The notes beneath the pieces were generated by a model, which worked only from the letters and a program-made list of their open reading frames with translations, had not been told where the DNA came from and did not search any database. DNA of 64,000 bases from positions 49,106,001 to 49,170,000 of the forward strand of contig CM059432.1 in NCBI GenBank assembly GCA_030390025.1, written 5' to 3'. Source of the DNA: Squalus acanthias (lineage: Eukaryota). The position numbers and the translations under genes are program-made. Shown here piece after piece: positions 1,277 through 47,815 of this stretch. Numbering within the stretch: the first letter of the stretch is position 1; each line of letters starts with the position of its first letter.

Positions 1277-1311
1277 GTTCTGATGAAGGGTCATCGACCT
1301 GAAACGTTAAC
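1277..1311 (+). ncRNA. Minimal type-I hammerhead ribozyme motif
   Basis: GTT-CTGATGA-A-GGGTC-ATC-GACCT-GAAA-CG-TT-AAC: conserved core, stem II, palindromic ACGT stem III, stem I GTT/AAC. Confidence 0.8.
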
Positions 1312-1378
1312 TCTGTTTCTCTCTCCACAGATGCTGCCTGACCTGCTGAGTATTTCCAGCATTTTCAGCTTTTATTTT
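1278..1378 (+). mobile_element. Penelope-like terminal repeat (pLTR) fragment, family 1
   Basis: Flanked by 9-bp direct repeat ATGAACAGG (1269-1277, 1379-1387). Homologous to 28229-28329, 28437-28567 and 54629-54682. Confidence 0.85.
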
Positions 1379-3016
1379 ATGAACAGGCTGAGTCTCTTTT
1401 CTCCTGAAAAGAGAAGGCTGAGGGGTGACCTAATAGAGGTCTTTAAAATTATGAAAGGTTTTGATAGAGTGGATACAGAGAGAATGTTTCCACTTGTGGG
1501 GAAGAGCAAAACTAGAAGCCATCAATATAAGATAGTCACCAAGAAATCCAATAGAGAATTCAGAAGAAACTTCTTTACCCAGAGAGTGGTGAGAATGTAG
1601 AACTCGCTACCACAGCGAGTAGTTGAGGTGAATAGTATAGATGCATTTAAGAGGAGGCTAAATAAGCAGATGAGGGAGAAGGGAATTGAGGGTTATGCTG
1701 ATAGAGTTAGATGAGAAAGGATGGTGGGAGGTGCGAGAGGAGCATAAACGCCGACATGGACTGGTTGGGCCAAATGGCCTGCTTCCGTGCCGCATATTCT
1801 ATGCAATTCTTTCTTCCTTTCTATTTCATACTAATTGGAAAACTCCTCAGTGAGATCGCAGAATGTCTGATGTGGGAAACGGGGAGAAAAAGTCATACTG
1901 GTGCAGTCAGGGGTGCTCTTATGAGGTTGGGGATGATGCATGTTGTTAGAGTAGAGCATCTGACTGTGCTATACGTGACTTGCCAGTACTTGGTGCTGAC
2001 ACTGGGTGGCTGAAATGAAAAGGTTCCATTCCCTAGATCTAATATCCCTCAGCTTGATGAGCACAAAATAAAAAGAAAAGAAAAATCCTTGGTACATTAG
2101 CACTGAACTGTTGCCCTGTAACACATCATATTACAGATAGAAAGTTATTATCTGTTGCTTTTTAACTTATTTCCTGTTAATTCACTAGCATATTATTGTT
2201 GGATAATAGACATCTAGGATTGTGTATGATTGTGTAGGATGACAACTGGGCATTTTAGTGATGACATCAAAAACACAAAGATAAAGTTAAGCCTATATCA
2301 GCATCACTTCCATCGCAAGATTAATTTTATGTTTGAAATATATTCCAGCCTCTATTGTATTGCATAAAGGTACAGTTCGAGGTCAGTTTTATTCTGTTTA
2401 CTGCACATTATTTGTTAGCTGGGAGCAGATGTCATGATAGATAGTGACTGATGGCAAGCTCCATCTACTGAATCATATGATTTGAACTGAAGTGTTATTG
2501 TGATTTGAGCTGAAGTAATGCCACATTTTATTTCACTGTTGTTACAGAGGAAGAACGCACCTTGCATACCTTGTATGTATTATAAGGCAACAGCTATTCA
2601 TATGACACTAAACTAAGCTGCAGCTTAAGTGGTCTATCACCAACATAGAGTCATAGGGGGAGAAATTCGGTATTGCCCCGTTTGGGGCACAATTATTGGC
2701 CGGGCGCAAAGTTTAGCACCTGGCGCAAATTATCGCCTCCAACTTCAAACTTGACTTCTATCGCCCCTGCAGGTGATTGGAGCGCTAAATTAGGTGCTAC
2801 ACACCTGTCTTAAGGCGCAAAGGCTGAGGAGCGAGGCGCTAACTTAGAGCGCGGGCGCAGCGCAGGTGATGTCAGTTAGCGATGGAACACAGACACACTG
2901 GCACTGGCCAGTTCTTAAAGGGGAGGGTCGATCTTGCTCTCCAGCCACACCCTGCTCATTGGAGCCTTGAATCTCGACCTGGAGAGACCTGTGATTACAT
3001 TTTCCAGCCAAGGACT

Positions 3017-4780
3017 ATGGAGAGGGTGAGAGAACGAGCTCAGTGCTTCAGCGAGTGGGCCTTGGAGGCTCTGGTTGGCGCGGTGGAGCGCAGAATATCT
3101 ATACTCTTCCTGAGAGTGGCAGGAGGCCTTTGCCGCGTGACTACAGAAGAGTGTGGAGGGAGGTGGCTCAGCACGTCTCCTCCAGGAGCATGGTGCCCAG
3201 GACCCATACTCAATGTCACAAAAAGTTCAACGACCTCACTTGGGTCGTCAGGGTGAGTGGATTTTTTTCAATACCTCTCCATCCCTCCATTTCAACCTCA
3301 CTCTATGGCCAGCGGGTCTTAAAACCCCAATGCCCAACACTCATCCAACACCTATGGCCCTCTCATGAAACACACACACACATTCCACACCTTGCATACA
3401 GTAAGGGCTATTCAACTATGGGAGGCACATCAGGCAAGACCATGGCTGTATATTTACTCAGACGCCGTCCTTTTTCTTACAGGCCAAGCTATCTCATAAC
3501 AGGAGACAGCAGCAATGGACGGGTGGAGGGCCGCCTCAGCTGCAACCCCTCAGCGATCTTGAGGCGTGCATCCACAGGATTGTGGCAAGCCAGGTGATCG
3601 GTCCTGTCGCCCCTGGAGAGGCCGACTCCGTTCGGGACAGCAATGGTAAGGTCATCAGCTTTCTCTCCTCTCTCATTCCACTTGTCGCTCACAACACCTG
3701 CCTTTGACACTTTCAATCCAACTTACTAAATCGCTGCACTCCTTCCTCCCTTACTGCCCCCCTGTCCTCACGCTAAAGCCACTCTTGTACCTCCCTGCTT
3801 TCAGATGGTGATTCACCAGCTGAGGAGGCGGGCCCGCAAGCTGCCAGTGGGAGTGAAGCTGCAGCCGAGGAGGAAGATGAAGCCAGAGCATCAGCGCCAC
3901 CCTCTCCCGAGGAAGCCCATGCCCACACTCGGACCACGTCTTCCCTGGAGGGGAGCAGGGGGGAAGGGTCTGATGAGGGTGAAGCTCCGGGACCCAGCGG
4001 ACTGCATCAACGCGATGTGGCTAGGGAAGCTCGGGGACCTTCTCCCCGGAGGGAGAGTAGGCCAGTGAGTCCTGCTGCACTGGATGCAGAGGAGGAGCGG
4101 CTCATCGCTGAAATGAACACCCAAGTGGTGGACATGCACACTGCGCTCATGGGTGCAGTGGGAAGGGTGCCCGAATGCATTGATGTACTGTCAAGGAGTG
4201 TGGAGCACTTCGCTGTAGCACAGGCGGATGCCACGCTAATGCTTAGTGCTGCAATTCAGTCACTGGCTGTCGTGATCCAATCTCAGACTGCTCTCATGCA
4301 GACTCAGATTGAGGTCACGCAAGCACTGACTGCTGCCATTCTCGCTGGTTCGGACACATTTCCCAGGGGCTCTCACGCGCCGCAGCAGGCCAGCAATCTG
4401 TGCTCCAGCAGATTGCACCGGATGCTGAGGTGCTGCCCCGTGGGAGTGCCAGTGTGTCGGTCGAGCAGGGAGTTGCTGTCCTCTCTCAAGATGACAGCAT
4501 TCCGGCTGCCACCACTGTCACTTCCCCATTGCACTTGCCACCACCTGTAGCCCAGACTGCTACCGCCCATGCAGAGTTGGTGCAGTCTGCAGCCAGGCCC
4601 TCTAGGCCCAGAGCTGGTCGAGGCCGTCCTTCAAGGGCATCTGTAGTCTCAGGTTCTGACAATCAGCAGCCTTCCACCAGCCTTGCTGCAGCCACTGGGG
4701 CCCCACTACGGAGGAGCAGTAGGGTGGGAAGGGGTAAAGTGCGCAAGGGAAGGAGATCACCCTCGAAGGGCAAAAAGTAG
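3017..4780 (+). pseudogene. Harbinger Myb/SANT-like DNA-binding gene, 3 exons (3017-3252, 3483-3645, 3805-4780), frameshifted
   Basis: MERVRERAQCFSEWALEALVGAV..VWREVAQHVSSRS..RTHTQCHKKFNDL; exon 2 AKLSHNRR..TGGG. GT-AG sites (AGG|GTGAGT, TTACAG|, ATG|GTAAG, TTTCAG|) are conserved in copy B. Confidence 0.8.
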
Positions 4781-5092
4781 GAGGTGTAACGAAATGTTGT
4801 TAAATTTTTTATTAAAGGCCGAGGTTCGTGTTCAAACTTTTGTTTAGTGTTTTGGACATTATCTCCAGGTTGTGAGAAACAGTAATGTGAATGAATGATT
4901 TTTTTGTGTTTGTTTCTATTAGTTTGTCATGAAGAAATGACACACACAGAGTTTGTAAAATAAAAAAGTTTTTGTATTCAAAATGTACAGGTTTGGCCTT
5001 TGGAATCATTGCTGCCTTGGCCGGCTTTGGGGTTGTGGGTTGCTTTCATTCATGTTGTTCTCCATGCCAGAAGCCATTTCCTCAGTAGGGGC

Positions 5093-6241
5093 CTAGAAGC
5101 GGCTTGTTATCAGCCGTTGACGGACGGCCCTTGCAGTTTCAACATTGTGGGCCTCCCTCCCACCTTGGTGCTGCTGCTGATCATCCTCCTCCTCTTCCTC
5201 CTCCTCCTCCGGTGGTGCTCCAAGGCCTGGTGGCATTGGCTGGGTCCTGAGGATTGCCAGGTTATGCAGCATGCAGCACACAACTATGAAGAGGGAGACT
5301 TGCTCAGGCGAGTACTGCAGGGCTCCTCCTGAGTAGTCCAGACAGTGGAACCGTTGCTTGAGCACGCCGATCGTCTGCTCAACGATGTTCCTGGTGGTGA
5401 GATGGCTCTCATTGTACGACAGCTCAGCAGGGGTGTTGGGGTTACGGAGCGGTGTCATCAGCCAGGTGCAGAGTGGATAACCTTTGTCCCCGAGGAGCCA
5501 ACCACTTGGCTGATGCGGTGCCTGGAAAAGTTCTGGCACAGCAGTCTGGCGCAGGATGAAAGCATCGTGGCTGCTGCCAGGATAGCGGGCATTGACAGCG
5601 AGTATCAGCTGTCTGTGGTCACAGACCAACTGGACATTTAAGGAGTGGAACCCCTTGTGGTTTCGGAAAACCTCTGCATTCTCATGCGGTGCCCGCAATG
5701 CCACACGCGTGCAGTCAATGGTGCCCTGCATCATGGGGAAGCCCGCTATCCTCGCAACGCCCAATGCGCGTTCATGCTATTTGGCCCGGGTCATCGGAAA
5801 AGAGATGTACTGGCGTCTCCTTTTATAGAGGGCATTTGTGACCTGACGGATACAGCAATGGTCAGCGAACTGGGAGATATTGGCGATGTCCCCAGTAGCT
5901 GCTTGAAAGGAGCCGGTGGCATAAAAGTTCAGAGCCACTGTGACCTTCACTGCCACCGACAGAGACGTCCTGGTCCTCAGTTGAGGCTGCAGATCTGGCT
6001 GCAGCAGGTGGCAGAGCTCAGTGATCACCTCCTTGCTGAAGCGCAGCCTGCGCAAACACTGCTCCTCAGACAAATTAATGTAGGAGAATTGTTCCCGGAA
6101 TACCCTGGGAGGGTAAGGTCTCCTGTGCAGAGGCCTGTTGGCCCTCCTCCGTCTGGCCATGATTGCCATTCTCTCTCTGCGTCTCTGTTGCCTCTGATTC
6201 TGCAGGCGCAGGACGATGCCCCGAATCAGTGCAGCCCCCAT
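5093..6241 (-). pseudogene. Harbinger (HARBI1-like) DDE transposase with one premature stop
   Basis: Motifs GTIDCTRV, SLNVQLVCD, YPGSSHDAFI, LLGDKGYP, RNIVEQTIGVLKQRF. ORFs 5777-6529 and 5093-5764 are in the same frame, split by TAG at 5779-5777. Confidence 0.9.
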
Positions 6242-8225
6242 TGTCTCTTGGCAATCGAAGTAATGAAGGTCAAATCCAAAAGTACCTTCAAAGTGATGCT
6301 CAGTAGCCAAAACTACTTCACACAGCGTTGACTCTATGCAGAAGTCTCTCTTTCTATCTCTCAGAATCTCTTTCTCTGTCAGAATGAGTGGTGCAAAAAT
6401 GTCTACCACAGAAAAAGCCAGGAAGAGGCCGCCTTTAAATAGCGCCCCCCCCCAGCCCCTCACCGACTGGGAAACGTTCCAGTCTCCCTGTCCTTGCTTG
6501 CGCCAGGCGGAAAGGAGGTGGGGCGCCACTCAATATCTGGGCCAGGGCGCCAACAGGGCGTTGCATGCTCGACTGATGTTACGATCTACGGCCGCAGGAG
6601 ATCGGGGCGGTAAACTGTTGCGACACCGTAAAAACTCTAGTCAATTTCGCGAGTTGCGCAAACATCACCGCGCACGGGCGCTAATTGCTTTGCGCCCCAT
6701 TAGCGCCCTTGCGCTAACAGGAGGCACAAGCCAATCGAATTTTTCCCCATAGAGTCATAACGGCACAGAAGGAGGCCATTCGGCTCAACGAGTCCGTGCC
6801 GGCTCTCTGTAGAGAAATCCAGTCAGACCCATTCCCCGCTCTATCCCCGTAGCCCTGCAAGTTAATTTCCCTCAAGTGCCTATCCAGTCTCCCCTTGAAA
6901 ACATTGAGTGTCTCTGCTTCCACCACTTCCGTCGGCAGCGAGTTCCAGGTCATCACCACACGCTGCGTAAAAAAGTTTTTCCTCACGTCCCCCCTGTATC
7001 TCTTGCCCAAAACCTTCAATCTGTGTCCCCTAGTCCTTGTACCATCAACTAGTGGGAACAGCCTTTCCCCGTCTAGCCTATCCAAACCCGTCATAATCTT
7101 GTACACCTCTATCAAATCACCCCTCAACCTCCTTTGCTCTAATGAAAACAAATCCAGCTTCTCCAACCTGTCCTTGTAGCTAAGATCCCCCATCCCCGGA
7201 ACCATTCTGGCAAATCTGCTCTGCACCCTCTCAAGGGCCTTCACATCCTTCCTAAAGTGTGGTGACCAGAACTGGATGCAATACTCCAGTTGTGGCCTAA
7301 CCAGCGCTTTATAAAGGTTCAGCATAACTTCTCTACTTTTGTACTCAGTACCTCTATTTATGAAGCCCAAGATCCCATATGCTTTGTTAACCAGTCTCTC
7401 AATATGTCCTGCCACCTTCAGGGATCTATGCACATTAACTCCCAGGTCCCTCTGTCCCTGTACACTCTTTAAAACTGTGCCATTAAGTGTATATTGCCTC
7501 TCCCTGTTCCTTCTGCCAAAATGCATCACCTCACACTTCTTTGTATTAAATTCCATCTGCCACTTGTCTGCCCATTCTGCTAGCCTTTCTATGTCCTGTT
7601 GCAGTCGATTGGTATCATCCTCAGTTTGCCACACCCCCAAGTTTGGTGTCATCGGCAAATTTAGAAATTCTACTCTGTATTCCAATATCCAGGTCATTTA
7701 TATCTATCAAAAAAAGCAGTGGCCCCAGCACTGACTCTTGGGAAACACCACTGTCTACCATCCTCCAGTCTGAAAAACAGCCATTTACCACAACTCGCTG
7801 TTTTCTGTCCTTAAGCCAATTCCTTGTCCAAGCTGCCACTGACCCAGCTATTCCATGAACCTCAATTTTGTTAAACAGCCTTCTATGTGGTACTTTGTCA
7901 AATGCCTTCCTAAAATCCATGTAGACAACATCCATTGCATTCCCTTCATCAATTCTCCCTGTTACTTCATCAAAAAATTCAATTTGTCAAACATGATCTG
8001 CCTTTTACAAATCCGTGTTGGCTCTCCTTAATTAGCTTAAACCTCTCCAAGTGCCCGTTAATTTTTTCCTTGATTTTTGTTTCTAAAACTTTACCCACCA
8101 CTGATGTTAAACTGACTGGCCTGTAGTTACTAGGATTGTCCTTACACACTTTCTTGAACAATGGTGTCACATTTGCCACTTTCCAATCCTCAGGCACCTC
8201 CCCCGCATCTAGGGAAGATTGGAAA

Positions 8226-9545
8226 ATCTACATCCTAGGGTACTTAAGGAAGTGGCCCTAGAAATAGTAGATACATTGCTGGTCATCTTCCAAAATTCTA
8301 TAGACTCTGGAACAGTTCCCATGGATTGGAGGGTAGCTAATGTAACCCCACTATTTAAAAAATGTGGTAGAGAGAAAACGGGGAATTATAAGCCTGACAT
8401 CGGTAGTGGAGAAAATGCTAGAGTCCATTATAAAAGATGTAATAGCAGAGCACTTGGAAAACAGTGACAGGATCGGATAAAGTCAACATGGATTTACAAA
8501 AGGTAAATCATGCTTGACTAATTTACTAGAATTTTTTGAGGATGTAACTGGTAGAATAGATAAGGGAGAACCAGTGGATGTGGTGTATTTGGACTTTCAG
8601 AAGGCTTTCGATAAGGTCCTGCATAAGAAATTAGCGTGCAAAGTTAAAGCACATGGGATTGGGGGTAAGGTACTGACTTGGATAGAAAACTGGTTGGCAG
8701 ACAAGAAGCAAAGAGTTGGAATAAACGGGTCTTTTTCTGAGTGGCAGGCAGTGACTAGTGGGGTACCGCAGGGATCGGTGCTAGGACCCCAGCTATTCAC
8801 AATATATATTAATGATCTAGACGAGGGAACTAGATGTAATATCTCCAAGTTTGCAGACGACACAAAGCTGGGTGGGCGTGTGTGCTGTGAGGAGGATGCA
8901 GAGAAATTCCAGTATGATTTGGACAGGTTGGGTGATTGGGCAGATGCATGGCAGATGCAATATAATGTGGATAAATGCGAGGTTATCCACTTTGGTGGCA
9001 AAAACAGGAAGGCAGATTATTATCTGAACGGCAATAGATTGGGAAAGGGGGAAGTGCAACGAGACCTGGGTGTCCTTGTGCACCAGTCGCTGAAGGTAAG
9101 CAATCAGGTGCAGCAGGCGGTTAAGAAGGCAAATGGTATGTTGGCCTACATAGCGAGAGGATTCGAGATCAGGAGCAAGGATGTCTTGCTGCAGTTGTAC
9201 AGGGCCTTGGTGAGACCACATCTTGAGTATTTTGTGCAGTTTTGGTCGCCTTATCTGAGGAAGGATGTTCTTGCCATGGAGGGACTGCAGCGAAGATTCA
9301 CCAGACTGATACCTGAGAGTGGTGAACCTGTGGAATTCTCTACCACAGAAGGCAGTTGAGGCCAATTCATTAAATATATTCAAGAAGGAGTTAGATATAT
9401 TTCTTAAGGCTAAGGGGATCAAGGGATATGGGGAGAAAGCAGGGACAGGGTACTGAATTTGGATGATCAGCCATGATCGCATTGAATGGCGGAGCAGGCT
9501 CGAGGGCCGAATGGCCTACTCCTGCTCCTATCTTCTATGTTTCTA
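8226..9545 (+). mobile_element. CR1 RT/3' fragment nested antisense in the larger CR1, with an internal deletion near 9313
   Basis: 281-aa ORF with [32 protein letters not shown]; tail TTCTATGTTTCTA. Confidence 0.92.
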
Positions 9546-10325
9546 CCTTTTCCACTTCTACTGATATTTTGTTAGCATCCACCTCCTTCGTAAACACCGA
9601 TACAATGTACTAATTGAGTATTCTAGCCTTGCCCTGCGCCTCTAAGCATATATCACCTTCTTTGTCCCTAATAGGCCCCACCTCGCCTCTTACTACCCGC
9701 TTACTATTTACATGCCGTTGAAGATTTTTGGGTTCCCTTTTATGTTAATTGCCATTCTACTCTCATATTCTCTCTGCCAATCTTATTTTCATCTTCACTT
9801 CCCCTCTCAACTTATTGTATTTGGTCTGGTTCTCCCTTGAAGAATTCACCTGACATGCATCATACATCCTCTTTTTTTGTTTCATTTTCTTCTCTATTTC
9901 CCTCGTCATACAAGGAGCCCTTGCTTTGGTTTCCTTACCCTTCCCTCTTGTTGGAATGTACTTAACCTGTACTTGGAACATCTCCTCCTTAAAGATCACC
10001 CATTGTTTCATTACACTTTTTCCTGTCAGTCTTTGGTTCCATTTTACCCTGGCTAGATCCTTTCTCATCCCATTGAAGTTAGCCCTATTCCAGTTTAGAA
10101 GTTCCACTCCAGATTGTTCCTTGCTCCTCTCCATTGCTAATCTAAATCTTATGATACGATGATCACTCGTACCCAAGTGTTCTCCCACAAACACTTGGTC
10201 GACCTGGCCCACCTCATTCCCCAGCACGAGATCCAGCAATGCCTTCTTCCTAGTTGGGCCAAGAACATACTGGTCAAGGAAATTCTCCTGAACACATTTC
10301 AGAAATTCCTCCCCCTGCTATGGCT

Positions 10326-10450
10326 ATATAAACTTGCAGGGCTACGGGGATAGAGCGGGGAATGGGACTGACTGGTTTGCTCTGCAGAGAGCCGGCGCAG
10401 ACTCGATGGGCTGAATGGCCTCCTTCTGTGCCGTTATGACTCTATGACTC
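10326..10450 (+). mobile_element. CR1 3'-end fragment, same subfamily as its host, inserted antisense
   Basis: Close reverse complement of about 6749-6865; tail TATGACTCTATGACTC. Confidence 0.85.
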
Positions 10451-10701
10451 CTTTCCCTTTACCCTAGCATTATCCAAATCGATATTTGGGTAATTAAAGT
10501 CCCCCAATATCACCACTCTATAGCTCTTGCATATCTCTGCATTTTCCCTGCAGATTTGCTCCTCTATCTCCCTCTGGCTATTTGGAGGCCTATAGAATAC
10601 TCTCAATAGCATGATCATACCCTTTTTGCTCCTCAACTTTTTAACCAAATGGATTCTGTCCTTGTCCCCTCAAGAACATCCTCCCTTTCCAACACTACAA
10701 T

Positions 10702-10969
10702 GGGCTGGATTTTGATACTGGGGCGGGTTGGGGTCGTGTCATCCACTTTTCGTGTTATCCACCCGACTGCAATTGGATGTGGGAGATTGATGCGATTTTC
10801 ACCTAATTGGGCAATTGAGTTCCAGCATGTGTGAACCCATGAACCAATTAGTGTTTTCAGTCTGAAAGTCGCCTCTGATGATGTCATCATTGCTGCTGCA
10901 TTGAATGTCTTCAGAGACTGCCTGGCCTTTGCTGTGAGAGGACCTGGATGCAAAATGAGTAGCAGCAGC

Positions 10970-11006
<37 letters not shown>

Positions 11007-11713
11007 AAGGCAAAATGAGCAGCAGCAGCCCTAGGTCTGCTCCCAGATATTTTTCCTCCTACTACTACTACTCCATTCTAATAGTTGACCTGCAGCTGAT
11101 AGTCAGCTTTTGAAATGTGTTACCGCCAGGTTTCACATTCGTGGTTCAGAACAGGCGTACTTCACATAGAACATGGGTTAAAATCACAAAGGCCTTTCAA
11201 AATGGAATTATACAGCCAATTTAGTGCTTGTTAAGGGCCTTAACAGCCTATCCCGCCTCTTAAAGGCGGGATGGAGTCAGGACCAGCAGACACGATTTAA
11301 TGAAAATTGCGTGGAGGCGGACTTGTGCCCACCCGCCAGTTTTCACAATTTTAACCCCCCACACGCCTCTAAACCCACCTCCACGGGTCACACAGAATCA
11401 CAACAGTGCAGATAGAGGCCATTTCGGCCCATCGAGCCTGCACCGACACATATCCCACCCTATCCCCGTAACCCCACGTATTTAATCCCCCCTAACACTA
11501 AGGGTCAATTTATCATAGCCAAATCAACCTAACCCACACATCTTTGGACTGTGGGAGGAAACCGGAGCACCCGGAGGAAACCCACGCAAACACAGGGAGA
11601 ATGTGCAAACTTCACACAGACAGTCACCCGTGGCCGGATTCGAACCCGGGTCCCTGGCGCTGTGAGGCAACAGTGCTAACCACTATGCCACCGGGTCAAT
11701 GAAAATCCAGCCC
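10702..11713. mobile_element. Non-autonomous Harbinger-type MITE inserted in the CR1 endonuclease region
   Basis: TIR GGGCTGGATTTT / AAAATCCAGCCC, TSD AAT on both sides. Host frame LLKEDI|VVLEREDV resumes across it. Internal (GA)n at 10972-11002. Confidence 0.9.
11391..11691 (-). mobile_element. tRNA-derived V-SINE (HE1-like)
   Basis: Minus-strand A box TGGCATAGTGG, B box GGTTCGAATCC, V-domain GGGTTTCCTCCGGGTGCTCCGGTTTCCTCCCACA, CR1-like tail; TSD CGGGTCA. Confidence 0.9.
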
Positions 11714-12098
11714 AATATCTTCCTTTAACAGCACTGCCACCACACCTCCTTTTTTTCCTTCCCTATCTTTTCTGAACACCTTGTACCCTTGAATATTAAG
11801 TGCCCAGTCCTCACCGTTTTTAAGCCACGTTTCTGTTATTGCCACAACATCATATTGCCACGCGGCTAATTGTGCTTGTAGCTCACCAACCTTACTCCCT
11901 GCACTTTGTGCATTTACGTACATGCATTCTAAACCCATTTTTGAATTTTTCGTAGTCTTTCTTAGTCTGCTCCTATCTAATATGGTACTACTTCTGCGTC
12001 TAGTACTACTTCTCTAGTACTATCCAACACACTCACTCTTTTATGCACCTTATTCCTCTTTTCTACTCCTATATGCTGGTGCCCATCCCCCTGCCAAG

Positions 12099-26918: not shown

Positions 26919-28101
26919 ACAGCAATGTGATAATGACCAGATAACCTGTTTTAGTGATGTTGATTGAGGGATAAATATTGGCCAGGACACTGGGGAGAAC
27001 TCCCCTGCTCTTCTTCAAAATAGTGCCATGGGATCACTATACAAATACAGAAAGACAATTTTTTTTTTATTGTTTATGCTCTAAAAATGTGAAGTGAGTC
27101 TTCTTTAGTCACTGCCTCATAAAAAACTTCAGTATCTGCATACGTATGGAAACAATTCACACTGACAAATATCATTGCTATTTGACTATTTGATAATATC
27201 CCTGATTCCTTCACAGTCACAGCATGACAGTTCAAAGATGAAAGCATAATTTTGCAACAGAATAAAACAATTTGCCTGAGCCTACTTTTATTCATACTGT
27301 AATGCCATGTACATATGTTTCCCAGCACACATATACAATGACGTCTTCTATATAATTTAGCAATCTAAAATAAGTCTTCATAATTTCTGAGTGTACAATA
27401 TTCACACTGCCAAAATCATTAGCCTTTAGACCAATGTGAATGAGTTTCCACAGTGCACAAATTAAGCCTGTGTAGATCATCAGTAGCTATTTGTAGTAAG
27501 CCAATGAGGCATGGAACAAAATCACTGTTAACAATAGTTTAGCAGATGTATGATGAAATAACACAAAGCGACTGATTTTAGTATCTCTTTTGAAAATCAA
27601 ATAAAACACCTGGGTCCCTCTGGCTGATGAATTCTGACATTTAATTGATTGAGATGAATGTTCCTGCTGTAGTCCTTTATAGTGTGATCCTCCACGAAAT
27701 GAGAATTACAAACAAATAGAAAGAAACAAATTGCAATTATTATTGATTTCTAGACATAGCAAAACAAGGGAGATGAAAAATAGAACTAACATGGAATAGA
27801 TACTGTAATTGAAATGATTTTTGCAGGTCAGGTATACTATGTATTTTGGATCAACCCAGTATTTATCACTAAACATTTCACTAATGCAAAATTTTTCAAT
27901 GCAATATTGAAGTATAACTTAAGAGTTGAAATTGGTGAACCAGCAGCGATTCAAAGAGGCAGCCTTATATTACTTCAGGTTTTGCCCAACTACACTATAA
28001 CTTCAACCAATGTACAATAAAGTTTAAAAGATTCCCTAATAACAACAGAAAATACTAGAAAAACTCAGCAGACCAGGCAGCATCCGTGGAGAGAGAAACA
28101 G

Positions 28102-28138
28102 AGTTAACGTTTCAGGTCGAAGACCTTTCGTCAGAACT
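28102..28138 (-). ncRNA. Minimal hammerhead ribozyme motif (intact core)
   Basis: Minus strand AGTT-CTGACGA-A-AGGTC-TTC-GACCT-GAAA-CG-TT-AACT. Confidence 0.85.
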
Positions 28139-28228
28139 GGAAAAAAGCAGGAAATGGAACAGATTTTAAAGCAATGGAATAGATTTTAAATCTTGCTTTA
28201 AAATCTATTCCATTTCCTGCTTTTTTCC

Positions 28229-28265
28229 AGTTCTGACGAAAGGTCTTCGACCTGAAACATTAACT
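28229..28265 (+). ncRNA. Minimal hammerhead ribozyme motif with a CpG-type mutation in stem III
   Basis: AGTT-CTGACGA-A-AGGTC-TTC-GACCT-GAAA-CA-TT-AACT. Confidence 0.75.
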
Positions 28266-28436
28266 CTGTTTCTCTCTCCACAGATGCTGCCTGGCCTGCT
28301 GAGTTTTTCCAGCGTTTTCTGTTGTTATTTCGGATTTCCAGCATCCGCAGTATTTTGCTATTTTAAAAGATTCCCTGGTGGTTAAGCTTAATTTTCAACT
28401 TTTTAATGTTAATAGAGAGCCACTTGTGCTTTATAG

Positions 28437-28567
28437 GTTCTGACGAAAGGTTATTGACCTGAAACGTTAACTCTGTTTCTCTCTCCGCAGATGCTGCCTG
28501 ACCGGCTGAGTATTTCCAGCATTTTCTGTTTTTAGTTCAGATTTCCAGCATCCGCAGTATTTTGCTT
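28437..28567 (+). mobile_element. Solo Penelope pLTR fragment with hammerhead motif (28437-28471)
   Basis: GTT-CTGACGA-A-AGGTT-ATT-GACCT-GAAA-CG-TT-AAC; imperfect TSD TTGTGCTTTATAGG / TTGTGCTAAATAGG. Confidence 0.85.
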
Positions 28568-29499
28568 TTGTGCTAAATAGGACTGTTCGCCCAACATTAA
28601 AATTTGACTGCCATTTGGATGGCAGTGTGCAGAGCTCCACCCTTGCATGGTTGCACACTCCCTGACTAAAGAATGACACAGAACAATATAACTTGGGTCT
28701 CACACTATGAAACACAATTGTACCTTAAATCTTACTTAGTACACGCAGAGCAGACTTTACAGTCCTGGCACAAATTACTCATAATTAGTTGCTAAGAATC
28801 TATTTTTCAAAATTTGTTCAAATAATACATCAAATTTGCAGACAAAAATAGCTTTATTAAAATCGACAACACATAACAATAGTTCAACTGAATTCAGAGT
28901 GCACATACTTAACATAGAATATCCAAAGAATAATGAAGTCAAATAATTAAATCTAATTTGGGATGATTAGCTTATTCAACGCAAAGTTAAGCTGCAATGA
29001 AAATCCCCCTCCTATAAATATAATCTTCAAGAATATTCCAGTGTTCTTAAAGGTGTAGGCTATTAGGAGTATATTTCCCACCAACTGTTAAATGTGTTGA
29101 CAGTAGAGAATTGTGTTAAAAGGAGTGGCAAATTGGATAAAAAATAATGGCTATTTCTGCCCATATTCCTGCTATTCAGAATGTTCCACCTGCTCTAAGA
29201 AACATGTACCACCATTAATTGAAAAACAATCACTTGCTTGTTATTACCTATCCGAAGAAAAGCATTACGGTCTCCCACTGGAGGGAAATGAATGCGAACA
29301 GGAGTTTGTGATTACATGCTGAGCTGAAGTTACTACAATAGCAGAATGGGTAGATTTGGAAATATCAGCACAGTACAGACAGGATTCTTTGAGTCCCACA
29401 GAATGGGTACAGTGGCCCTTGTTGCTGTGTAATAGTGTGGAGATGGTGGCAGCAAAGAGTGAACTGAAAGCACAAAGTACCTAGAGACTCATCACTCAC

Positions 29500-36155: not shown

Positions 36156-36184
36156 CAATGTGGTATCCATAAGTAAGACTATTG

Positions 36185-37325: not shown

Positions 37326-37326
37326 G

Positions 37327-38041: not shown

Positions 38042-38081
<40 letters not shown>

Positions 38082-39610
38082 TTTTTGCATCCAAGTCCTC
38101 TCACAGCAAAGTCCATGCAGTCTCTGAAGACATTCAATGCAGCAGCATCAGAGGCGACTTTCAGACCTAATACTACTACTACCTTCATCACATCTCCGTT
38201 GTAATAGTGGACCTGCAGCTGATAGTCAACTATCCACTTGTGCTCCCCGCCAGGTTTCACTGGAGTGTTTCACATCAGGTGTACTTCATGTCGGAAAAGG
38301 GTTAAACTAGCTAAAACGTTTCAAAATGGCATTACAGAGCCAATTTAGGGCTTGTTAAGGGCTTTAATGGCCTCTCCCGCCTCTTGGAAGCGGGACGGAG
38401 TCGGGAACCCCGCGACCGATTTTGTCAAAATTGCGTGGAGGTGGGATGGAGTCGGGACCCCCGACCCCGCAAATTTAACCCCCCACACGCCTCCAAACCC
38501 GACTCCACGGGTCATTCAAAATCCAGCCCTATCTCTCCTCATAGGACAATCCCCTTATCCCAGGAACCAGTCTGGTGAACCTTCGTTGAGCTCCCTCTAT
38601 GGCAAGTATATCCTTCCTTAGGTAAGGAGACCAAAACTGTACACAATACTCCAGGTGTGGTCTCACCAGGGCCCTATATAATTGCAGTAAGACGTCTTTA
38701 CTCTTATACTCAAATCCTCTTGTAATAAAGGCCAACATACCATTTGCTTTCCTAATTGCTTGCTGTACCTGCAATGTTAACTTTCAGTGATTTATGTACA
38801 AGGACACCCAGGTCCCTCTGAATACCAATATTTCCCAATCTCTCACCATTTAAAAAATACTCTACTTTTCTATTTTTCCTACCAAAGTGGAGAACTTCAC
38901 ATTTCTCCACATTATATTCCACTTGCCATGTTCTTGCCCACTCACTTAACCTGTCTATATCCTCTTGAAGCCTCTTTGCGTCCTCCTCACAACTTATATT
39001 CCCACCCAGCTTTGTATCATCAGCGAACTTGGATATATTACATTTGGTCCCCTCATCCAAATCATTGATGTAGATTGTGAATAGCTGAGGCCCAAGCACT
39101 GATCCTTGCGGTACCCCACTAGTTACAGCCTACCAACCCGAAAATGACCCGTTTATTCCTACTCTCTGTTTTCTGTCCGTTAACCAATCCTCAATCCATG
39201 CTAGTATATTACCCCCAATCCCATGAACCCTAATTTTGTTTAATAACCTCTTGTGCGGCACCTTATTGGATGCCTTCTGAAAATCCAAATGCACCACATC
39301 CACTGGTTCCCCCTTATCTATTTTGCGAGTTACAACCTCAAAAAACTCTAACAGATTCGTCAAGCACGATTTCCCTTTCATAAATCCGTGTTGACTCTGC
39401 CCAATCCTATTGTTATTTTCTAAGTGCCCTGTTACCACACCCTTAATAGTAGTTACAATCATTTTCCCTACTACTGATGTCAGGCTAACTGGTCTGTAGT
39501 TTTCCGTTTTCTCTCTCTCTCCTTTCTTAAATAGTGGGGTTACATTTATTACCTTCCAATCTGCGGGAACCGTTCCAGAATCTATGGAATTATGGAAAAT
39601 GACAACCAAT
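37327..39610 (-). mobile_element. CR1 RT and 3' end, interrupted by a MITE
   Basis: ORFs 39130-39609, 38752-39099 and 38529-38774 carry RT motifs; (AGAACATA)n tail. Confidence 0.92.
37769..38529. mobile_element. Harbinger-type MITE, same family as 10702-11713
   Basis: TIR GGGCTGGATTTT / AAAATCCAGCCC; shared internal sequence; (GA)n at 38047-38078. Confidence 0.9.
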
Positions 39611-40843
39611 GATTATCACTGTTTGCAGCACCTCTATGCTGTCGAACACTGACAGCACAAATGTTAAAATAAATTTGGACATGGTCCCTTTAAGGAAACC
39701 GGCTGATGACACGTCATCAAATGACATCACCAGACCCGCTTCCTCTAATTGGCCGGGAAATGCGCTGGGTGGGCTTCACAAGCCCAATCAAGGTAAATTC
39801 ATTTCACAAGGCGGGCTGGAGCCAGCTGTGGGGTCAGGACCCGCCACCGACATCACCCGCCACGGACCCACCAAGGTTAGCAAAATCGCGGCCAATAAGT
39901 TCAAAGCATGAACATTGACCACTCTCTACAACAGAGTAGAGGTGTTATTTTCATTCTCTTCACTTGCCAGAACTGAAAGCTGGAAGGGATGTATGATGGC
40001 ATTAACTCGTCTCAAAAAATAGAGTTGGATTAGTGTCTGGTTAACAATTGAACTGAAGGCCATAAGGAGTACTACAAAAAAGAATAATCATGAACCCTAT
40101 GGAACACTATGGCCACAATTTTGCTAACCTCGGCAGGAGGGAACAGAGAGATACTTTGCAAAATCTTTCCTTGTGATTGACTAAATTGGGTACAGTAAAT
40201 GTCAGGACAAATTGTGCAAGGTCTATGGAAGTAGTGAGCTCGATGGGCCAAACTGCATTTTCTTGTTAGATTCTTATGCCCTTATTAAATTTATTCCAAG
40301 GCCTTAAAACCTTTTAAGTGGGACTGTATTACACTTGTCTCCTTGGTTCTAAATATTAACCACAAAAACTATGGGGAATAGAGGAAAAGCTGGTAAACTC
40401 AGTTATTTCTACAGGTTCATATTAAAGCCTGAAAAATGAATTGTTCAAAAGCCTAATCCCAGCACTACAGATTTGATCAGTAAATCCATTGGGGGAAAAA
40501 TTGGGTGTCGCCCATTTTGAGGCGCTAATATCCCCAGGCGCAAATTTTAATGCCCGCTGCAAATTATCGCCGGCGACCGCGAAATTCGTTTCCAGCGCCC
40601 CTGGAAGTGATTGGAGCGCTAAATCAAGCGCTACACACCTCTCTTAGGGCACTAACATCGGGGAACGGGACGCTCCCTCAGAGCGCTACTGAAGCTCAGG
40701 CGATGTCAATTACTTTGTACTCAGACAGACTGGCACCATCCAGTTCTTAAAGGGGAGAGTCCATCATGCTGCACAGCCACAACCTGCTCACTGCAGCGTT
40801 TGACCTGGGCCTGCAAGGAGGTAAAAATCTTCAGCAAAGATTT

Positions 40844-42671
40844 ATGATGGATACTCAGAGGCCAAGGGAGAGAGCTCGCTGGTTTAGCAACCAGGCATTG
40901 GTGGCTCTGGTTGGCGCTGTGGAACGCCGACAGGTAGTGCTATTTCCAGACACTGGCAGGAGGCCATTGCCCCGAGAGTTTACAAGGGTGTGGAGGGAGG
41001 TTTCCCAGTACATTTCATCCAGGAGCCTGGTCCAAAGGACTTACACGCAGTGCCGCAAGAAGTTCAATGACCTCACTCGAGTGGTCAGGGTGAGTACATG
41101 CTTGAAAAACCTTTACATCCCACCATCTCAACCTCACTCTGTGCACAGATGGTGTAAATTGGCAAATCCCCAACACTCACCCAACAACTATGCCCATCTA
41201 ATAAAAGTCACATGCACATCCCACACCTTGCAGACATCAACGGCTATTCAACTATGGTAGGCACATTTGCCAAACACATGGCTGCACACTCACTTAGACG
41301 CTGTCTTTTTTCTTGCAGGCCAAGCTTTCACATAACCGGAGGGAGCAACAATGCACAGGAGAAGGACAGGTGGAGCTGTACCCCCTCACACAACTGGAGG
41401 AGCGAGTCCACAGACTTATTGCCAGTCGTGTCGTCGGCTCTGTGGCTGTTGGGAGAGGTCGACCCCCTTGGGGACAGCAACGGTATGTTCATCAGCTTTA
41501 TCTCCTCTCGCATACCACTTCCCCCTCACAACACCAGCCTTTTACACTTTCCATCTAACTATACTGTCTCCATTCCAACTCTTGTACCTTCCTGCTTTCA
41601 GATAGTGAGCCATCAGCTGACCAGCCTGTCCCTCAGCCTTCCAGTGGCAGCGACGCGGGAGAAGAGGAGGAAGACGAAGCTCACGCCTCACCGCCTGCGT
41701 CTCCCGAGGGCGAGACATCCGATACTGGGGCCACGCGTTCACTGGAGGGGAGCAGGGGGTTTGGATCTGACCATGGGTGAAGCTCCGGGACCCAGCGGGC
41801 TGCAGTAACACCATGGGGGAAGGGAGGCTCAGGGGCCATCTCCCCGGAGGGTGAGTGCGTGCACGAGTTCTGCTGCACAGGACTCAGATGAGGACCTCGA
41901 TATAGCGGCCATGAATACTCAGGCTATGACCATGCCTATGGAGCTCATCGGTGCAATGACAAGGGTGCCCGACAGCATGGATGCACTGGCTAGGAGCGTG
42001 GAGGAATCCACCGCCAGCACAGCTGTCATCTGTGCGCAAACCCTTGAACCCATCCTTGCCTCGATGCAGAGGATGGTTGACTTGCAGAGAGACCGTGGGG
42101 ACCCAGATCCCATGCCACGTGTAATGTGTGAGGTGCCAGCATCTATTGCAGAACAGGCTGAGGCAACGCAACGGCTTAGTGCTGCAATCAAGTCAATGGT
42201 TGCTGCCATCCAGTCTCGGACTGCTCTCATGCAGTCTCAGCTTGATGTCACGCAAGCCCTGACTGCTGACATCATCGCTGGGTCACCCACTGTCCACCGG
42301 GGATTTCATGGTGCCGCAGCAGGCCAGCAATCTGTGCTCGAGCAGATTGCTCCGGATGCTGAGGTTCTGTCCCGGGGGAGTGGCAGTGTGTTGGTCGAGC
42401 AGGAAGGTGCTGTCCTCTCTCAGGATGACAGCATTCCTGCTCCGCCATTGCACTTGCCGCCCATGCAGAGTTGATGCAGTCTGCAGCCGGGCCCTTCAGG
42501 CCCAGAGCTGGTCGAGGGCGTCCTTCAAGGCCATCTGCAGTCTCTGGATCCAACACTCAGCAGCCTTCCACCAGCTTTGCTGCAGCCACTGGGGCCACAT
42601 TACGGAGGAGCAGTGGGGTGGGAAGGGGGGAAGTGTGCAGGGGATGGAGATCATCCTCGAAGGGCGAATAA
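40844..42671 (+). pseudogene. Harbinger Myb/SANT-like gene, 3 exons (40844-41089, 41319-41482, 41602-42671), disrupted
   Basis: RERARWFSNQALVALVGAVERR..VWREVSQYISSRS..RTYTQCRKKFNDLTRVVR; splice sites at positions homologous to copy A. Confidence 0.8.
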
Positions 42672-42980
42672 CTAAAAATTCTCCAACAAATGGGGAGAAT
42701 GTTTGTCCCAAAGTTGGATGTTCATGTTAATATCTTGTTCACTCTGTTAACGCTTATCTTGATGTGGTAAGAACCAGTTTTGTTTGTTAATGAATTGTGT
42801 TTGTTTGTTATTGGTTGTGCTGAATAAATAAGACACAGTTTGTCAGAAAAATAAAGTTCTTTATTGAAACTTCACAACTTTGCTCATTTGACTCATTGGA
42901 GCTTTGCCCGGCAATAGGGGCTGCAGGATGGCTGTAATGATGTGCTTGTTCATCACAAAAGCCATCTTCTCTGTCATTCA

Positions 42981-44084
42981 TCAGAAGTGGCGTCTTATCA
43001 GGCGTTCACGAACAGCCCTTGCACAGGTAACATTGAGCGCCTCCCTCCCACGTTGTTGCTGCTCCTCCTCCTCCTGAGGTGGTGCACCAATCCCTGGTGG
43101 CAATGACTGGTTCCTCATAATTGCAAGGTCGTGAAGCATGCAGCACACAACAATGAAAACCGAAACTCGATCAGGGGAGTACTGCAGGGCTCCTCCAGAG
43201 TGGTCAAGACACCGGAACCGTTGCTTCAACACGTCGATCGTCTGCTCAATGAGGTTCCTGGTGGCACTATGGCTCTCACTGTATGCGAGCTCAGCAGGAA
43301 TGTTGGGGTTATGGAGCAGTGTCATCAGTCAGGTGCAGAGTGGATAACCCTTGTCCCCGAGGAGCCAGCCACGAGGTTGACGCGGTGATTGGAACAGGTC
43401 TGGGGCACCAGTCTGGCGCAGAATGAAAGCATCGTGGCTGCTGCCAGGATAGCGGGCATTGACAGCGAGGATGCGCTGTCTGTGGTCGCAAACCAACTGG
43501 ACGTTGAGAGAATGGAAGCCTTTGCGGTTGCGGAACACCTCTGCATTTTCATGAGGAGCCAGCAATGCCACATGCGTGCAGTCAATGGCGCCCTGAACCA
43601 TGGGGAAGCCCGCTATACTAATGAAGCCACATGCGTGTTCAGGCTGTTTGTCTTGGGTCATGGGGAAAGATATGTACTCCCTTCTCCTTTTGTAGAGAGC
43701 ATTTGTGACCTCCCAAATGCAACAATGGACTGCGAATTGGGAGATATTCACAATATCCCCAGTTGAAGCTTGGAAGGAGCTGCTGGCATAGAAATTGAGA
43801 GCCACCGTCACCTTCACTGCCACCGACAGAGACTTCCTGGTCCTGAGCTGAGGCTGGGGCTCTGGTTGCAGGTGGTGGCAGAGCTCTGTGACCACCTACT
43901 TGCTGAAGTGGAGCCTTCTGAAACACTGCTCCTCTGACAGATGAATGTAGGAGAATTGCACCCGGAATACCATGGGAGGGTAAGGTCTCCTCCCTCTGGC
44001 CACGTTTGCAACTCTTTCTCTGCGCCTCTGCTGCCTCTGAAGGTGAAGCTGGAGGACGACGCCCCGTGTTAGTACAGCCCCCAT
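42981..44084 (-). pseudogene. Harbinger transposase with two in-frame stops
   Basis: ORFs 43896-44084, 43329-43895 and 42981-43325 share one frame; GAIDCTHV, HDAFI, GDKGY, IEQTI. Confidence 0.9.
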
Positions 44085-45278
44085 TTAATCTTCTAAATGT
44101 GGTAGTAATAAAGCTGACAGAAATGGGAATCTGAAAAGTGTTGCCGAGGAACAAAACTCCTTGTAGGACAGCGTTAAATGTCTCCAGACGCCTATCGCCC
44201 TCTCAACCTGCGTATGCAAAATATTTTGCCGACAGGAAAAAGCAGGAAGCGCACAACTTTAAATAGCCCTCCCCCAGCTCCCAGCCGACTGCAAAATGTC
44301 CCCCTCTACCTATCGTTCCTAGCGGCAGGTGCTAAGGCAGGGGGCAAGAATCAAGTTCCGGTCCAGGGCACTACCGGGGGCGTTGCGCGCTTCGATGACA
44401 TCATGATCTCCGGGCGCAGGAGATCGTGGCGGTAGTGTTTAGCGCCACCGCAAAGCACCAGGTCAATTTCGCGGGCGGCGCTAAAATCACCACTCTCCGG
44501 CGGTAAGTCGTTTGCGCCCCCTGGAGGTGCTAACGGGAGGCACTAACCAACCAAATTTTCCCCCCTTTGTTTCTGAGAGAATTGCTTTATCTGTTCATCA
44601 GTTTGTAGTAAACCCTATAGATAAGTGGACATAGCGTGCTTTTATTCATTTCTTTTTTCACAGCATTACGAATTCCTAGGTTAGACAGAGAAAATGGCAG
44701 CAGCAAGAGCCCCAAACTGTCCTGAGCAATCGACCTACTTCACCATAACTTCTGTACCATTTAAATTTGACCTACTCTGGATTGCAGAGCAGAGATGGTT
44801 ACAGCTCATTTCAGATAGAGCAATCTACACAAGTTTCAGGAAGCAAATATTTTATTCTCTCCCTGGTCTAGACTTAAACCCAGGACCGTAATTGGCAACT
44901 AGAGTGTGGCAGAACATATTAATAAACAGGGAGGGAGGGTTGGTTGCTCATTAGTAACAGTCATGAAGATTACTTTGAAGTAATCATTTGGTCTCAAATT
45001 CTTTACATGATCAGAAAAAATGTTGAAATTAGGATATAAGAGAATTTCTTTTGCACAGCAATAATGATATTCATAACATTTAATAGGAACATAGGCATGA
45101 ACAGGGCCACAAGAGATCATTTCGGTCCATCTGGCTGGCCCCAGATTTCAAAAACAGAATTGAAATCCTTTGCCATATTAACTTCTGAAATATCTTATTC
45201 TAGTTCTGATCTGATGCACAATCCTTGAAAGGTTATATCCATATAATCTGTCTATACTACATTACACATATATTTCTG

Positions 45279-45436
45279 AGAAGTGGCACAACACCAGGTT
45301 ATAGTCCAACAGATTTATTTAATTTTACAAGCTTTCGGAGCTGTCGCTCCTTCGTCAGGTAAGTTAGCAATGAGAGAATCTCCCAGAATTCACAATTTAA
45401 ACCCAGACAAAATCTATTCACATTATTCGCTACAAC
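45279..45436 (-). mobile_element. Penelope pLTR family 2, inverted left arm, with hammerhead motif at 45325-45362
   Basis: Reverse complement of about 47614-47771 with about 2 mismatches by eye. Confidence 0.88.
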
Positions 45437-45486
45437 TTCCCAGGTGTTTTTTTTTTTTTTTAAAAGGCTAACACAAGAACACAAAG

Positions 45487-47442
45487 GTGACTCAACCGTG
45501 GATAACAGGGGAAATTAGAGACAGCATAAAATCCAAAGATAGGGCGTATAAAATAGCCAAAAAAAGCGCCAGAGCGGAAGATTGGGAACAGTTTAAGATA
45601 GAGCAAAGGAGGACAAAGGGCTTAATCAAGAGGGGCAAAATAGCTTACGAAAGCAAGCTGGCGGAAAATATAAAAACTAACTCCAAAAGCTTTTATAAGT
45701 ATATCAAGAGGAAAAGACTGGTGAAAACCAAAGTTGGCCCATTGCAGTCAGATACGGGGGAATATATAACGGGAAATAAAGAAATGGCAGACCAACAAAA
45801 TGCATACTTTGGGTCAGTCTTTACGAAGGAAGACACAAAAAACCTCCCTGGGATATCGGGAAAAATTGGGACATTTGCAAAGGAGGAACTGACGCAAGTC
45901 AATATCTCTAAGGATATGGTGTTAAGGAAGCTAAAGGGATTGAAGGCGGACAAATCCCCAGGGCCTGATAACATGCATCCTAGGGTGCTGAAGGAGGTGG
46001 CCCTAGAGATAGCGGATGCACTAAGTATGATTTTTCAGAATTCATTAGACTCGGGAACAGTGCCCATGGATTGGAGGGTAGCTAACGTTACCCCACTATT
46101 CAAAAAGGGGAGTAGGGAAAAAGCAGGTAATTACAGACCTGTAAGCCTTACATCAGTTGTGGGCAAAATGCTGGAGTCCATCATTAAGGATGAAATAGCG
46201 GAGCACTTAGCAAATGGGGACAGGATAGGACAGAGTCAACATGGATTTACAAAGGGTAAATCGTGCTTGACTAATCTATTGGAATTTTTTGAGGGAGTAA
46301 CTGGTAAAATAGATGGGGGAGAGCCAGTAGATGTGGTGTACCTGGACTTCCAAAAGGCCTTCGATAAGGTCCCACATAAAAGATTAGCAGGGAAAATTGA
46401 AGCTCATGGGATAAAGGGGAAAGTATTGACGTGGATAGAGAACTGGCTGTCAGATAGAAAACAGAGAGTTGGAATAAACGGCTCATTTTCTGAATGGCAG
46501 GCAGTAACAAGTGGGGTACCACAGGGATCTGTCCTGGGTCCCCAGCTGTTCACAATTTACATTAATGACCTGGATCAGGGAGTCGGATGCAGCATTTCCA
46601 AATTTGCAGACGACACTAAACTAGGAGGGGGGGTGGGCTCAGAGGAGGAGACCAGGAAGCTCCAGAGCGATTTGGACAGACTGGGTGATTGGGCGGATAA
46701 ATGGCAGATGCACTATAATGTGGACAAGTGCGAAGTTATCCACCTTGGGTGCAGGAACGGGAGGGCAAATTATTATTTAAATGGCAATAAATTGGGAGAG
46801 GGGGAAGTACAGAGAGACCTGGGTGTTCTTGTACACCAGTCACTGAAGGCGAGCATGCAGGTGCAACAGGCGATCAAGAAGGCAAACGGTATGCTGGCCT
46901 TCATAGCAAAAGGGTTGGAATACAGGAACAGGGATACCTTGCTGCAGCTGTACAGGGCACTGGTGAGACCACACCTCGAGTACTGTGTACAGTTTTGGTC
47001 GCCTCATCTGAGGAAAGATGTTCTTGCCATGGAGGGGGTGCAGCGGCGATTCACCAGGCTGATACCAGGAATGGCGGGATTGACCTATGAGGAGAGACTA
47101 TGTAGTTTAGGTATGTACACACTGGAGTTTAGAAGATTGAGAGGGGACCTCATAGAAGTGTATAAAATTCTGACAGGTCTAGACAGACTAGATGCAGAAG
47201 GGATGTTTCCCTTGGCGGGTGAGAACAGAACTAGAGGACATAATTTAAGGATAAGGGCTAAACCATTTAGGACAGAAATGAGGGGGAATTTCTTCACTCA
47301 GAGGGTGGTGAACCTGTGGAACTCATTGCCACAGAGGGCAGTGTACGCCAGCTCATTAAATATATTTAAGAGGGAATTAGATATATTTCTACAGGCAAAA
47401 GGGGTTAAGGGTTACGGAGAGAAGGCGGGGACGGGATACTGA
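45487..47442 (+). CDS. CR1 ORF2 reverse transcriptase, 5'-truncated (no APE), uninterrupted 651 codons
   Basis: [51 protein letters not shown]; 3' UTR and (CTATGTAT)n tail to about 47541. No native start; the ORF begins at a GTG. Confidence 0.9.
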   Translation: MTQPWITGEIRDSIKSKDRAYKIAKKSARAEDWEQFKIEQRRTKGLIKRGKIAYESKLAENIKTNSKSFYKYIKRKRLVKTKVGPLQSDTGEYITGNKEMADQQNAYFGSVFTKEDTKNLPGISGKIGTFAKEELTQVNISKDMVLRKLKGLKADKSPGPDNMHPRVLKEVALEIADALSMIFQNSLDSGTVPMDWRVANVTPLFKKGSREKAGNYRPVSLTSVVGKMLESIIKDEIAEHLANGDRIGQSQHGFTKGKSCLTNLLEFFEGVTGKIDGGEPVDVVYLDFQKAFDKVPHKRLAGKIEAHGIKGKVLTWIENWLSDRKQRVGINGSFSEWQAVTSGVPQGSVLGPQLFTIYINDLDQGVGCSISKFADDTKLGGGVGSEEETRKLQSDLDRLGDWADKWQMHYNVDKCEVIHLGCRNGRANYYLNGNKLGEGEVQRDLGVLVHQSLKASMQVQQAIKKANGMLAFIAKGLEYRNRDTLLQLYRALVRPHLEYCVQFWSPHLRKDVLAMEGVQRRFTRLIPGMAGLTYEERLCSLGMYTLEFRRLRGDLIEVYKILTGLDRLDAEGMFPLAGENRTRGHNLRIRAKPFRTEMRGNFFTQRVVNLWNSLPQRAVYASSLNIFKRELDIFLQAKGVKGYGEKAGTGY

Positions 47443-47541
47443 ATTGGAGGATCAGCCATGATCTCATTAAATGGCGGAGCAGGCTCGAAGGGCCGGATGG
47501 CCTACTCCTGCTCCTATCTTCTATGTATCTATGTATCTATG

Positions 47542-47815
47542 ATATGCAGCCAGCAGGTGGTTTGACACGTTGGACCTCCTGGGACACATCTCATTGTCTT
47601 GGCTGTGCTCTTTGTTGTAGCAAATAATGTGAATAGATTTTGTCTGGGTTTAAATTGTGAATTCTGGGAGATTCTCTCATTGCTAACTTACCTGACGAAG
47701 GAGCGACAGCTCCGAAAGCTTGTAAAATTAAATAAATCTGTTGGACTATAACCTGGTGTTGTGCGACTTCTCATTTTTGTCCACCCCAGTCCAACGCCGG
47801 CATCTCCACATCATG
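47542..47815 (+). mobile_element. Penelope pLTR family 2, right arm with ~40-bp tail
   Basis: Ends AATAAATCTGTTGGACTATAACCTGGTGTTGTG..CCCCAGTCCAACGCCGGCATCTCCACATCATG, followed by the TSD. Confidence 0.85.
47688..47725 (+). ncRNA. Minimal hammerhead ribozyme motif, family 2
   Basis: TTAC-CTGACGA-A-GGAGC-GACA-GCTCC-GAAA-GC-TT-GTAA. Confidence 0.85.

Follow-up and report, generated by a model that had tools for sequence, protein, structure and literature searches.

The 64,000-nucleotide stretch of the Squalus acanthias genome analyzed here (contig CM059432.1, positions 49,106,001 to 49,170,000; hereafter the window) carries six short hammerhead ribozyme motifs, which raises the questions of what elements these motifs belong to and whether they cut RNA. 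Our analysis makes it very likely that the motifs are hammerheads of the minimal type I, located in the pseudo-long terminal repeats (pLTRs) of Penelope-like elements (PLEs) from two families, left behind as 5′-truncated solo or inverted copies, with a ribozyme that likely cuts only a small share of the elements' tandem transcripts and stubs that are likely inert. A structure-based scan, proposed in a preliminary description of this DNA and using a descriptor that asks for the core plus minimum lengths of 4 bp for stem II and 3 bp for stem I, recovers the six motifs named there and no others, at 1277–1311 (+), 28102–28138 (−), 28229–28265 (+), 28437–28471 (+), 45325–45362 (−) and 47688–47725 (+), and finds none in 60 of 60 dinucleotide shuffles of the window or in the reversed window. 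Direct inspection verified all coordinates and strands, the core CUGAYGA-A-stem II-GAAA in all six, and in each the CUGANGA...GAAA..UH pattern that defines membership. The description had also claimed that stems I and II differ between families yet covary to keep pairing, which is so at most pairs, and that GUU or CUU triplets lie at the predicted cut, which is correct as sequence. Its loopless palindromic stem III, ACGU in family 1 and AGCU in family 2, is present in five of the six motifs (and in 39 of 43 structured matches from random loci) and is broken in the 28229 copy, which reads ACAU. Stem II of the 28437 copy contains a G–U pair, and in both this copy and the 1277 copy the target-site duplication supplies the outer base of stem I. 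An Rfam scan of the window returned no hammerhead at E ≤ 5, as would be expected for motifs lacking helix III; its 10 matches include no ribozyme and are hairpin-driven miRNA models only, all below threshold.

Assignment of the motifs to PLEs rests on their coding context. In genomic copies, both pLTR types are immediately preceded by an open reading frame (ORF) with reverse transcriptase (RT) and GIY-YIG domains, contrary to what an origin outside PLEs would predict, and on this linkage the proposal of minimal type I hammerheads from two PLE families is upheld. Locus L061:2541–7885 (−) is a young family 2 PLE in partial tandem with a complete pLTR-ORF-pLTR arrangement, in which the full unit spans 3,046 nt from hammerhead to hammerhead and an uninterrupted ORF of 892 aa starts 91 nt after the predicted cut. 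This frame matches RVT_1 above the cut-off (E 2e-8) and contains DKG, YIDD, a CX5CXXC linker and, by pattern only, a GIY-YIG/CCHH-type motif. A full-length copy represents family 2, and family 1 is described from partial copies, with a GIY-YIG Pfam score of 22.2 bits just under the cut-off of 22.6 and an RT remnant at E 2.5e-5. Family 1 ends follow the same family as the coding remnant at window 51654–53634 (+), a decayed RT and GIY-YIG region with frameshifts and stops whose own hammerhead is missing. The two families' proteins share 35% identity over 205 aa and a linker CX2-5CXXC finger, a feature common to Neptune and Nematis (PMC8557442). At least 40 copies of the family 2 end are 97–100% identical (40 scored of 443 candidates), and family 2 is shared across species, because contigs from two other organisms (runs X1 and X5) cover most of the L061 element with few differences; from these contigs element similarity can be read, and transcript ends and strand cannot.

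Insertion anatomy agrees with this origin. Motifs lie 45–100 nt upstream of the insertion 3′ end and, in longer copies, downstream of the RT–GIY-YIG frame, and 3′ ends among the matches listed form two groups ~40 nt apart. An inverted arm occurs within 1.5 kb at 15 of 29 family 2 loci, 14 of these 15 with a 12–13-bp duplication, and the first 100 exact family 2 matches listed contain 25 opposite-strand, tail-outward pairs and 2 same-strand pairs, one of them a true tandem. Copies display the partial-tandem pLTRs, inverted 5′ copy, 30–40-bp tail and variable target-site duplication of endonuclease-positive (EN+) PLEs; PMC8557442 describes such an inverted copy and tail, and PMC11167929 a pair of RT start sites.

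The six window motifs represent four insertion events, since 28102/28229 and 45325/47688 are each enclosed by one target-site duplication and are the two arms of one insertion. Three events belong to family 1. At 1278–1378 (+) a solo pLTR stub with a tail-less 3′ end carries hammerhead 1277–1311 (predicted cut 1308/1309) between 9-bp duplications (1269–1277 and 1379–1387) within an old fragment of a CR1-type long interspersed nuclear element (LINE). The fold-back insertion at 28038–28361, with arms on both strands and a 15-bp duplication (28023–28037 and 28362–28376), joins a tail-less inverted arm bearing hammerhead 28102–28138 (−) to a tailed arm bearing 28229–28265 (+). The third, at 28437–28568 (+), is a solo tailed pLTR stub with hammerhead 28437–28471 and an imperfect 13-bp duplication, 11 of 13 letters matching. 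The family 2 insertion at 45279–47815 lies between duplications at 45266–45278 and 47816–47828: its left part (45279–45485, −; hammerhead 45325–45362) consists of a tail-less inverted arm (45277–45436) followed by a short sense piece of the element 3′ region; its right arm (47541–47815, +) is a pLTR with hammerhead 47688–47725, predicted cut 47721/47722 and a full tail ending at the element start codon; and between them lies a young 5′-truncated CR1-type LINE (45486–47538, +) with a 656-aa open RT frame.

The expectation that such motifs would be very abundant was confirmed genome-wide. Across 3.71 Gb, exact patterns gave 5,747 family 2 and 31,768 family 1 matches against none for controls, and a loose core pattern gave 107,681 against 251 for its reversed control. 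In a random sample of 119 10-kb loci from large contigs (120 drawn, one out of range), the structure descriptor matched 43 times, 42 of them in families 1 and 2, with no matches in reversed or shuffled controls, which extrapolates to ~131,000 structured motifs (94,000–177,000). A genome holding on the order of 100,000 such motifs stands far above the counts of the defining paper (~4,000 for coelacanth and 9,000 for Xenopus; PMC4209133), an excess of more than tenfold between descriptors that differ. Against ~35 motifs per Mb genome-wide, six in 64 kb has P = 0.03 if motifs are independent; they are paired, and so the window is not unusual in motif density.

Structural variation was scored in 41 tail-anchored family 2 copies, drawn from random loci, the window and its flanks, and in 30 family 1 copies. 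The third pair of family 2 stem I is C–G in 28 of 41 and U–A in 11 of 41, with C–A or U–G in none; this covariation lies between subfamilies and is one event inherited by many copies. Other family 2 variation is confined to N7, H17, loop II and wobble (G–U) pairs. Both core and palindrome are kept in 20 of the 30 copies of family 1 and in 29 of the 41 of family 2. No selection on the core was detected in genomic copies, the family 1 core decaying like the tail (mismatches 10/300 versus 25/600, p = 0.59), in a small sample whose inclusion score favours conserved cores. Constraint would then act on source elements and not on stubs.

These features suggest a mechanism whose observed basis is the pLTR placement, the two 3′ ends, the inverted arms, the target duplications, the covariation and the neutral decay. 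The element protein would nick both target strands, as PMC11167929 and PMC4209133 suggest, and RT primed at two internal sites downstream of the hammerhead would yield two arms of opposite orientation, one with a tail and one without. At the hammerhead, most templates are probably uncut and copied through, because most copies run through it. Cutting may require a dimer formed through the 4-nt palindrome and probably the element protein too, as reported for the anole PLE, and would trim the 5′ end of the unit RNA. A minor fraction of family 2 RNA would be trimmed in this way, and its reverse transcription would leave family 2 copies beginning at the cut site.

A copy number this high lets insertion breakpoints test in vivo cleavage from the genome alone: a cleaved RNA reverse-transcribed from start sites 45–92 nt downstream gives a copy that starts exactly after H17. 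We counted genome-wide copies with two mismatches immediately upstream of an intact tail and obtained, for family 2, 483 at the predicted cut (site 0) versus 192 and 206 at control positions −3 and +4. The first 30 site-0 loci and 30 regions per control were inspected; three tandem duplicates were passed over at −3, and at +4 the arms of a pair counted together as a single region. By scripted classes, the 29 distinct site-0 loci comprise 8 junctions with microhomology in stem I, 2 loci with small insertions, 10 further inversions and 9 direct junctions; four of the 29 are direct target-duplicated insertions starting at the cut. Indels make up 6 of 30 at −3 and 7 of 34 matches at +4. Under a conservative correction, which drops stem I junctions at site 0 only and assumes flank composition for the filter pass rate, the family 2 ratios are 3.3 (2.2–4.7) and 1.9 (1.3–2.8) against the two controls, corresponding to ~890 copies; hand classification gives 3.6 and 2.5. 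In the first 100 of 529 truncated family 2 copies listed, scored by eye, 16 break at the cut site, 22 one base short of it and at most 9 at any other position, with 10 of the 22 one-base-short rows representing one recurrent fold-back junction favoured by the filter. The random sample adds two of five truncations in the hammerhead stretch at the cut site, alongside 30 intact copies. We tentatively read the AGCU-family insertions, which number in the tens of thousands, as preserving a trace of ribozyme activity, with ~900–1,250 copies starting at the hammerhead cut because their germline template RNA had self-cleaved, a reading to which we give slightly less than an even chance. If true, it would provide direct evidence, from the genome, of in vivo cutting by the minimal hammerhead of a PLE, together with a sequence-only assay that ranks active (AGCU) against inactive (ACGU) ribozyme families. 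This breakpoint excess, in a first pass positive for one family, is the main added value of the analysis. In two family 2 hammerheads that are otherwise intact, L264 and L273, 3 and 1 additional bases lie precisely at the predicted cut, perhaps because RT jumped across a nick; small insertions of this kind occur at control positions too.

Several observations weigh against, or limit the evidence for, this account. Genome-wide control positions number only two for family 2 and one for family 1, and family 1 shows no clear excess (258 versus 152 raw; corrected 1.1–1.5, intervals including 1), with counts confounded by deletions and apparent later insertions of another repeat and a first breakpoint listing dominated by 2-nt slippage copies. 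The covarying stem I pair counts as a single phylogenetic event and not many. Fold predictions for family 1 monomers and dimers miss the active structure, the duplex formed by the palindrome is calculated at just −1.7 to −2.5 kcal/mol, and by prediction that duplex can be lengthened through U17 to a 6-bp helix that is likely inactive. A raw-read run from another organism (X22) constitutes no test, since neither the element nor the host exon received a read. PMC11167929 reports no reads ending at the cut site in anole RNA and cleavage that is unneeded in vitro, and reviews treat in vivo cleavage by PLE hammerheads as unresolved.

These points leave considerable room, though with a probability somewhat under one half, for the same PLEs to carry a ribozyme that never cuts in vivo, the family 2 excess then reflecting either pauses of RT at the folded core or the palindrome helix, or microhomology where inversions join. 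Stem I microhomology explains 8 of the 29 site-0 loci, a 6-nt palindrome stops exactly at the cut site, and a mechanism free of cleavage fits the lack of a clear family 1 excess; monomer activity is reported as low or nil in PMC4209133, and 8 of 9 Xenopus dimers as inactive in a preprint (bioRxiv 10.64898/2026.07.22.740005). However, the excess survives removal of stem I junctions with the controls' own microhomology junctions left in, non-inverted junctions are also ~3-fold enriched (wide interval, 1.4–7), and pausing ahead of stem I would be expected at +4, where the count is lower. Breakpoint enrichment at the cut site is undescribed in the available portions of the PLE and hammerhead literature searched, which includes PMC6155905, PMC6765202 and PMC7761336, while Lunse 2017, the Terminon paper or supplements could hold it.

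A separate possibility, which we consider unlikely, is that dispersed sense motifs in introns cut host pre-mRNA, as dimers in cis or in trans, at rates high enough to have an effect. The sheer number of structured motifs and the retention of core and palindrome in about two-thirds or more of copies (20/30 and 29/41) would favour such an effect, as would the depletion of related elements from Xenopus introns described in the preprint (bioRxiv 10.64898/2026.07.22.740005). The window's setting would favour it as well. About 23 kb to its left, L075:6776–7048 (−) is the first coding exon of a gene of the hnRNP C/RALY family (PDB RALY RNA-recognition motif, E 9e-41), with acceptor and donor sites present and an N-terminus that, we presume, resembles RALYL; the window, upstream of the exon's acceptor, is probably in a 5′ untranslated region intron of that gene. 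Even so, cleavage of host intronic RNA by the window copies, suggested in the preliminary description, was not borne out: only 28102 and 45325 are sense to this nearest, minus-strand gene, both are inverted-repeat arms, and the other four of six are antisense to the likely host transcript. Nor do the window copies have the dimer partners envisaged for them. The only close same-strand pair, 28229/28437, includes the broken-palindrome copy, locked in a hairpin of ~140 bp that is the predicted fold of the plus strand of the 28102/28229 fold-back; the minus strand would be expected to pair likewise. About half of family 2 motifs lie in inverted pairs that fold into long hairpins, tandem partners are rare, and the core shows no selection for or against it (p = 0.59).

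A new composite mobile element, in which a LINE has acquired ribozyme-bearing inverted ends, would account for the single target duplication spanning both arms and the CR1 at 45.3–47.8 kb and for the youth of both parts, yet we regard it as highly improbable and reject it, as such a junction recurs in 0 of 29 other family 2 loci, six further copies of the same CR1 (98.7–100% identical) have no PLE flanks, and ~7 nt of the PLE 3′ region are replaced by CR1, with AAA microhomology at the CR1 5′ end. The CR1 at 45486–47538 is an ordinary young LINE, inserted later or joined during insertion. Its family is very young (~99% identity), with matches in 4 of the 119 random loci (L152, L157, L178 and L188).

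Further remnants and repeats surround these insertions, and the repeat content appears shark-like. Two family 1 pLTR tail remnants without a hammerhead lie at 53826–53891 (−) and 54629–54682 (+). Two related repeat copies at 2700–6530 and 40534–43895, with transposase-like and Myb-like frames on opposite strands, are presumably Harbinger-type DNA transposons, and decayed gag/pol-like frames at 57233–61157 (+) are, we assume, LTR-retrotransposon-like. Elsewhere in the genome, a family 1 tail fold-back with a degenerate hammerhead region and shared flanks recurs at L072:1450–1640, L079:8081–8225 and L083:6955–7007 and is possibly a non-autonomous derivative. Family 1 stubs at L353, L358, L360, L368, L374, L380 and L075:3054–3150 are bordered, at the TTAA in stem III/I, by GC-rich repeat ends that resemble one another, which suggests that another transposon inserts there; we take TTAA to be a Harbinger-like target. 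Same-strand hammerheads in series occur at L062 and L063, in 1.68-kb tandem arrays that combine satellite with the truncated end of a family 1 PLE; considered as retrozymes, they were rejected, both examined arrays being duplications of satellite and truncated PLE coding end.

Comparison with known systems places the window motifs in a published motif class, and the window copies are ordinary stubs whose insertion anatomy is also published. Like the minimal hammerheads in metazoan PLE pLTRs, including fish Xena, Poseidon and Neptune (PMC4209133), they are type I without a helix III loop, with palindromic 15.2–16.2 and an extra nucleotide between A9 and stem II, and occur mostly as solo truncated copies with some opposite-strand pairs; unlike those, about half of family 1 copies have A–U and not G–C at the first stem II pair, in the register set here. 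They share with Neptune/Nematis-type EN+ PLEs (PMC8557442) a C-terminal GIY-YIG with a CCHH-type motif, the linker CX2-5CXXC finger, partial tandems, the inverted 5′ copy and a 30–40-bp tail on one end. Animal non-LTR retrozymes, found in one cartilaginous fish according to the preprint (bioRxiv 10.64898/2026.07.22.740005), also use type I hammerheads related to those of PLE pLTRs, but are tandem non-coding repeats with a hammerhead in each unit, whereas the window holds solo or inverted stubs of autonomous PLEs. The anole Poseidon element PAc (PMC11167929) likewise inserts on both strands, at AT-rich targets, with two RT start sites that define the tail and lie downstream of the hammerhead. 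Its start codon is located in stem II and its cut inside the ORF, while here the cut lies upstream of the start codon, at the 91-nt distance given above; and in contrast to PAc, for which no in vivo cleavage ends were found, family 2 displays an excess of breakpoints at the predicted cut.

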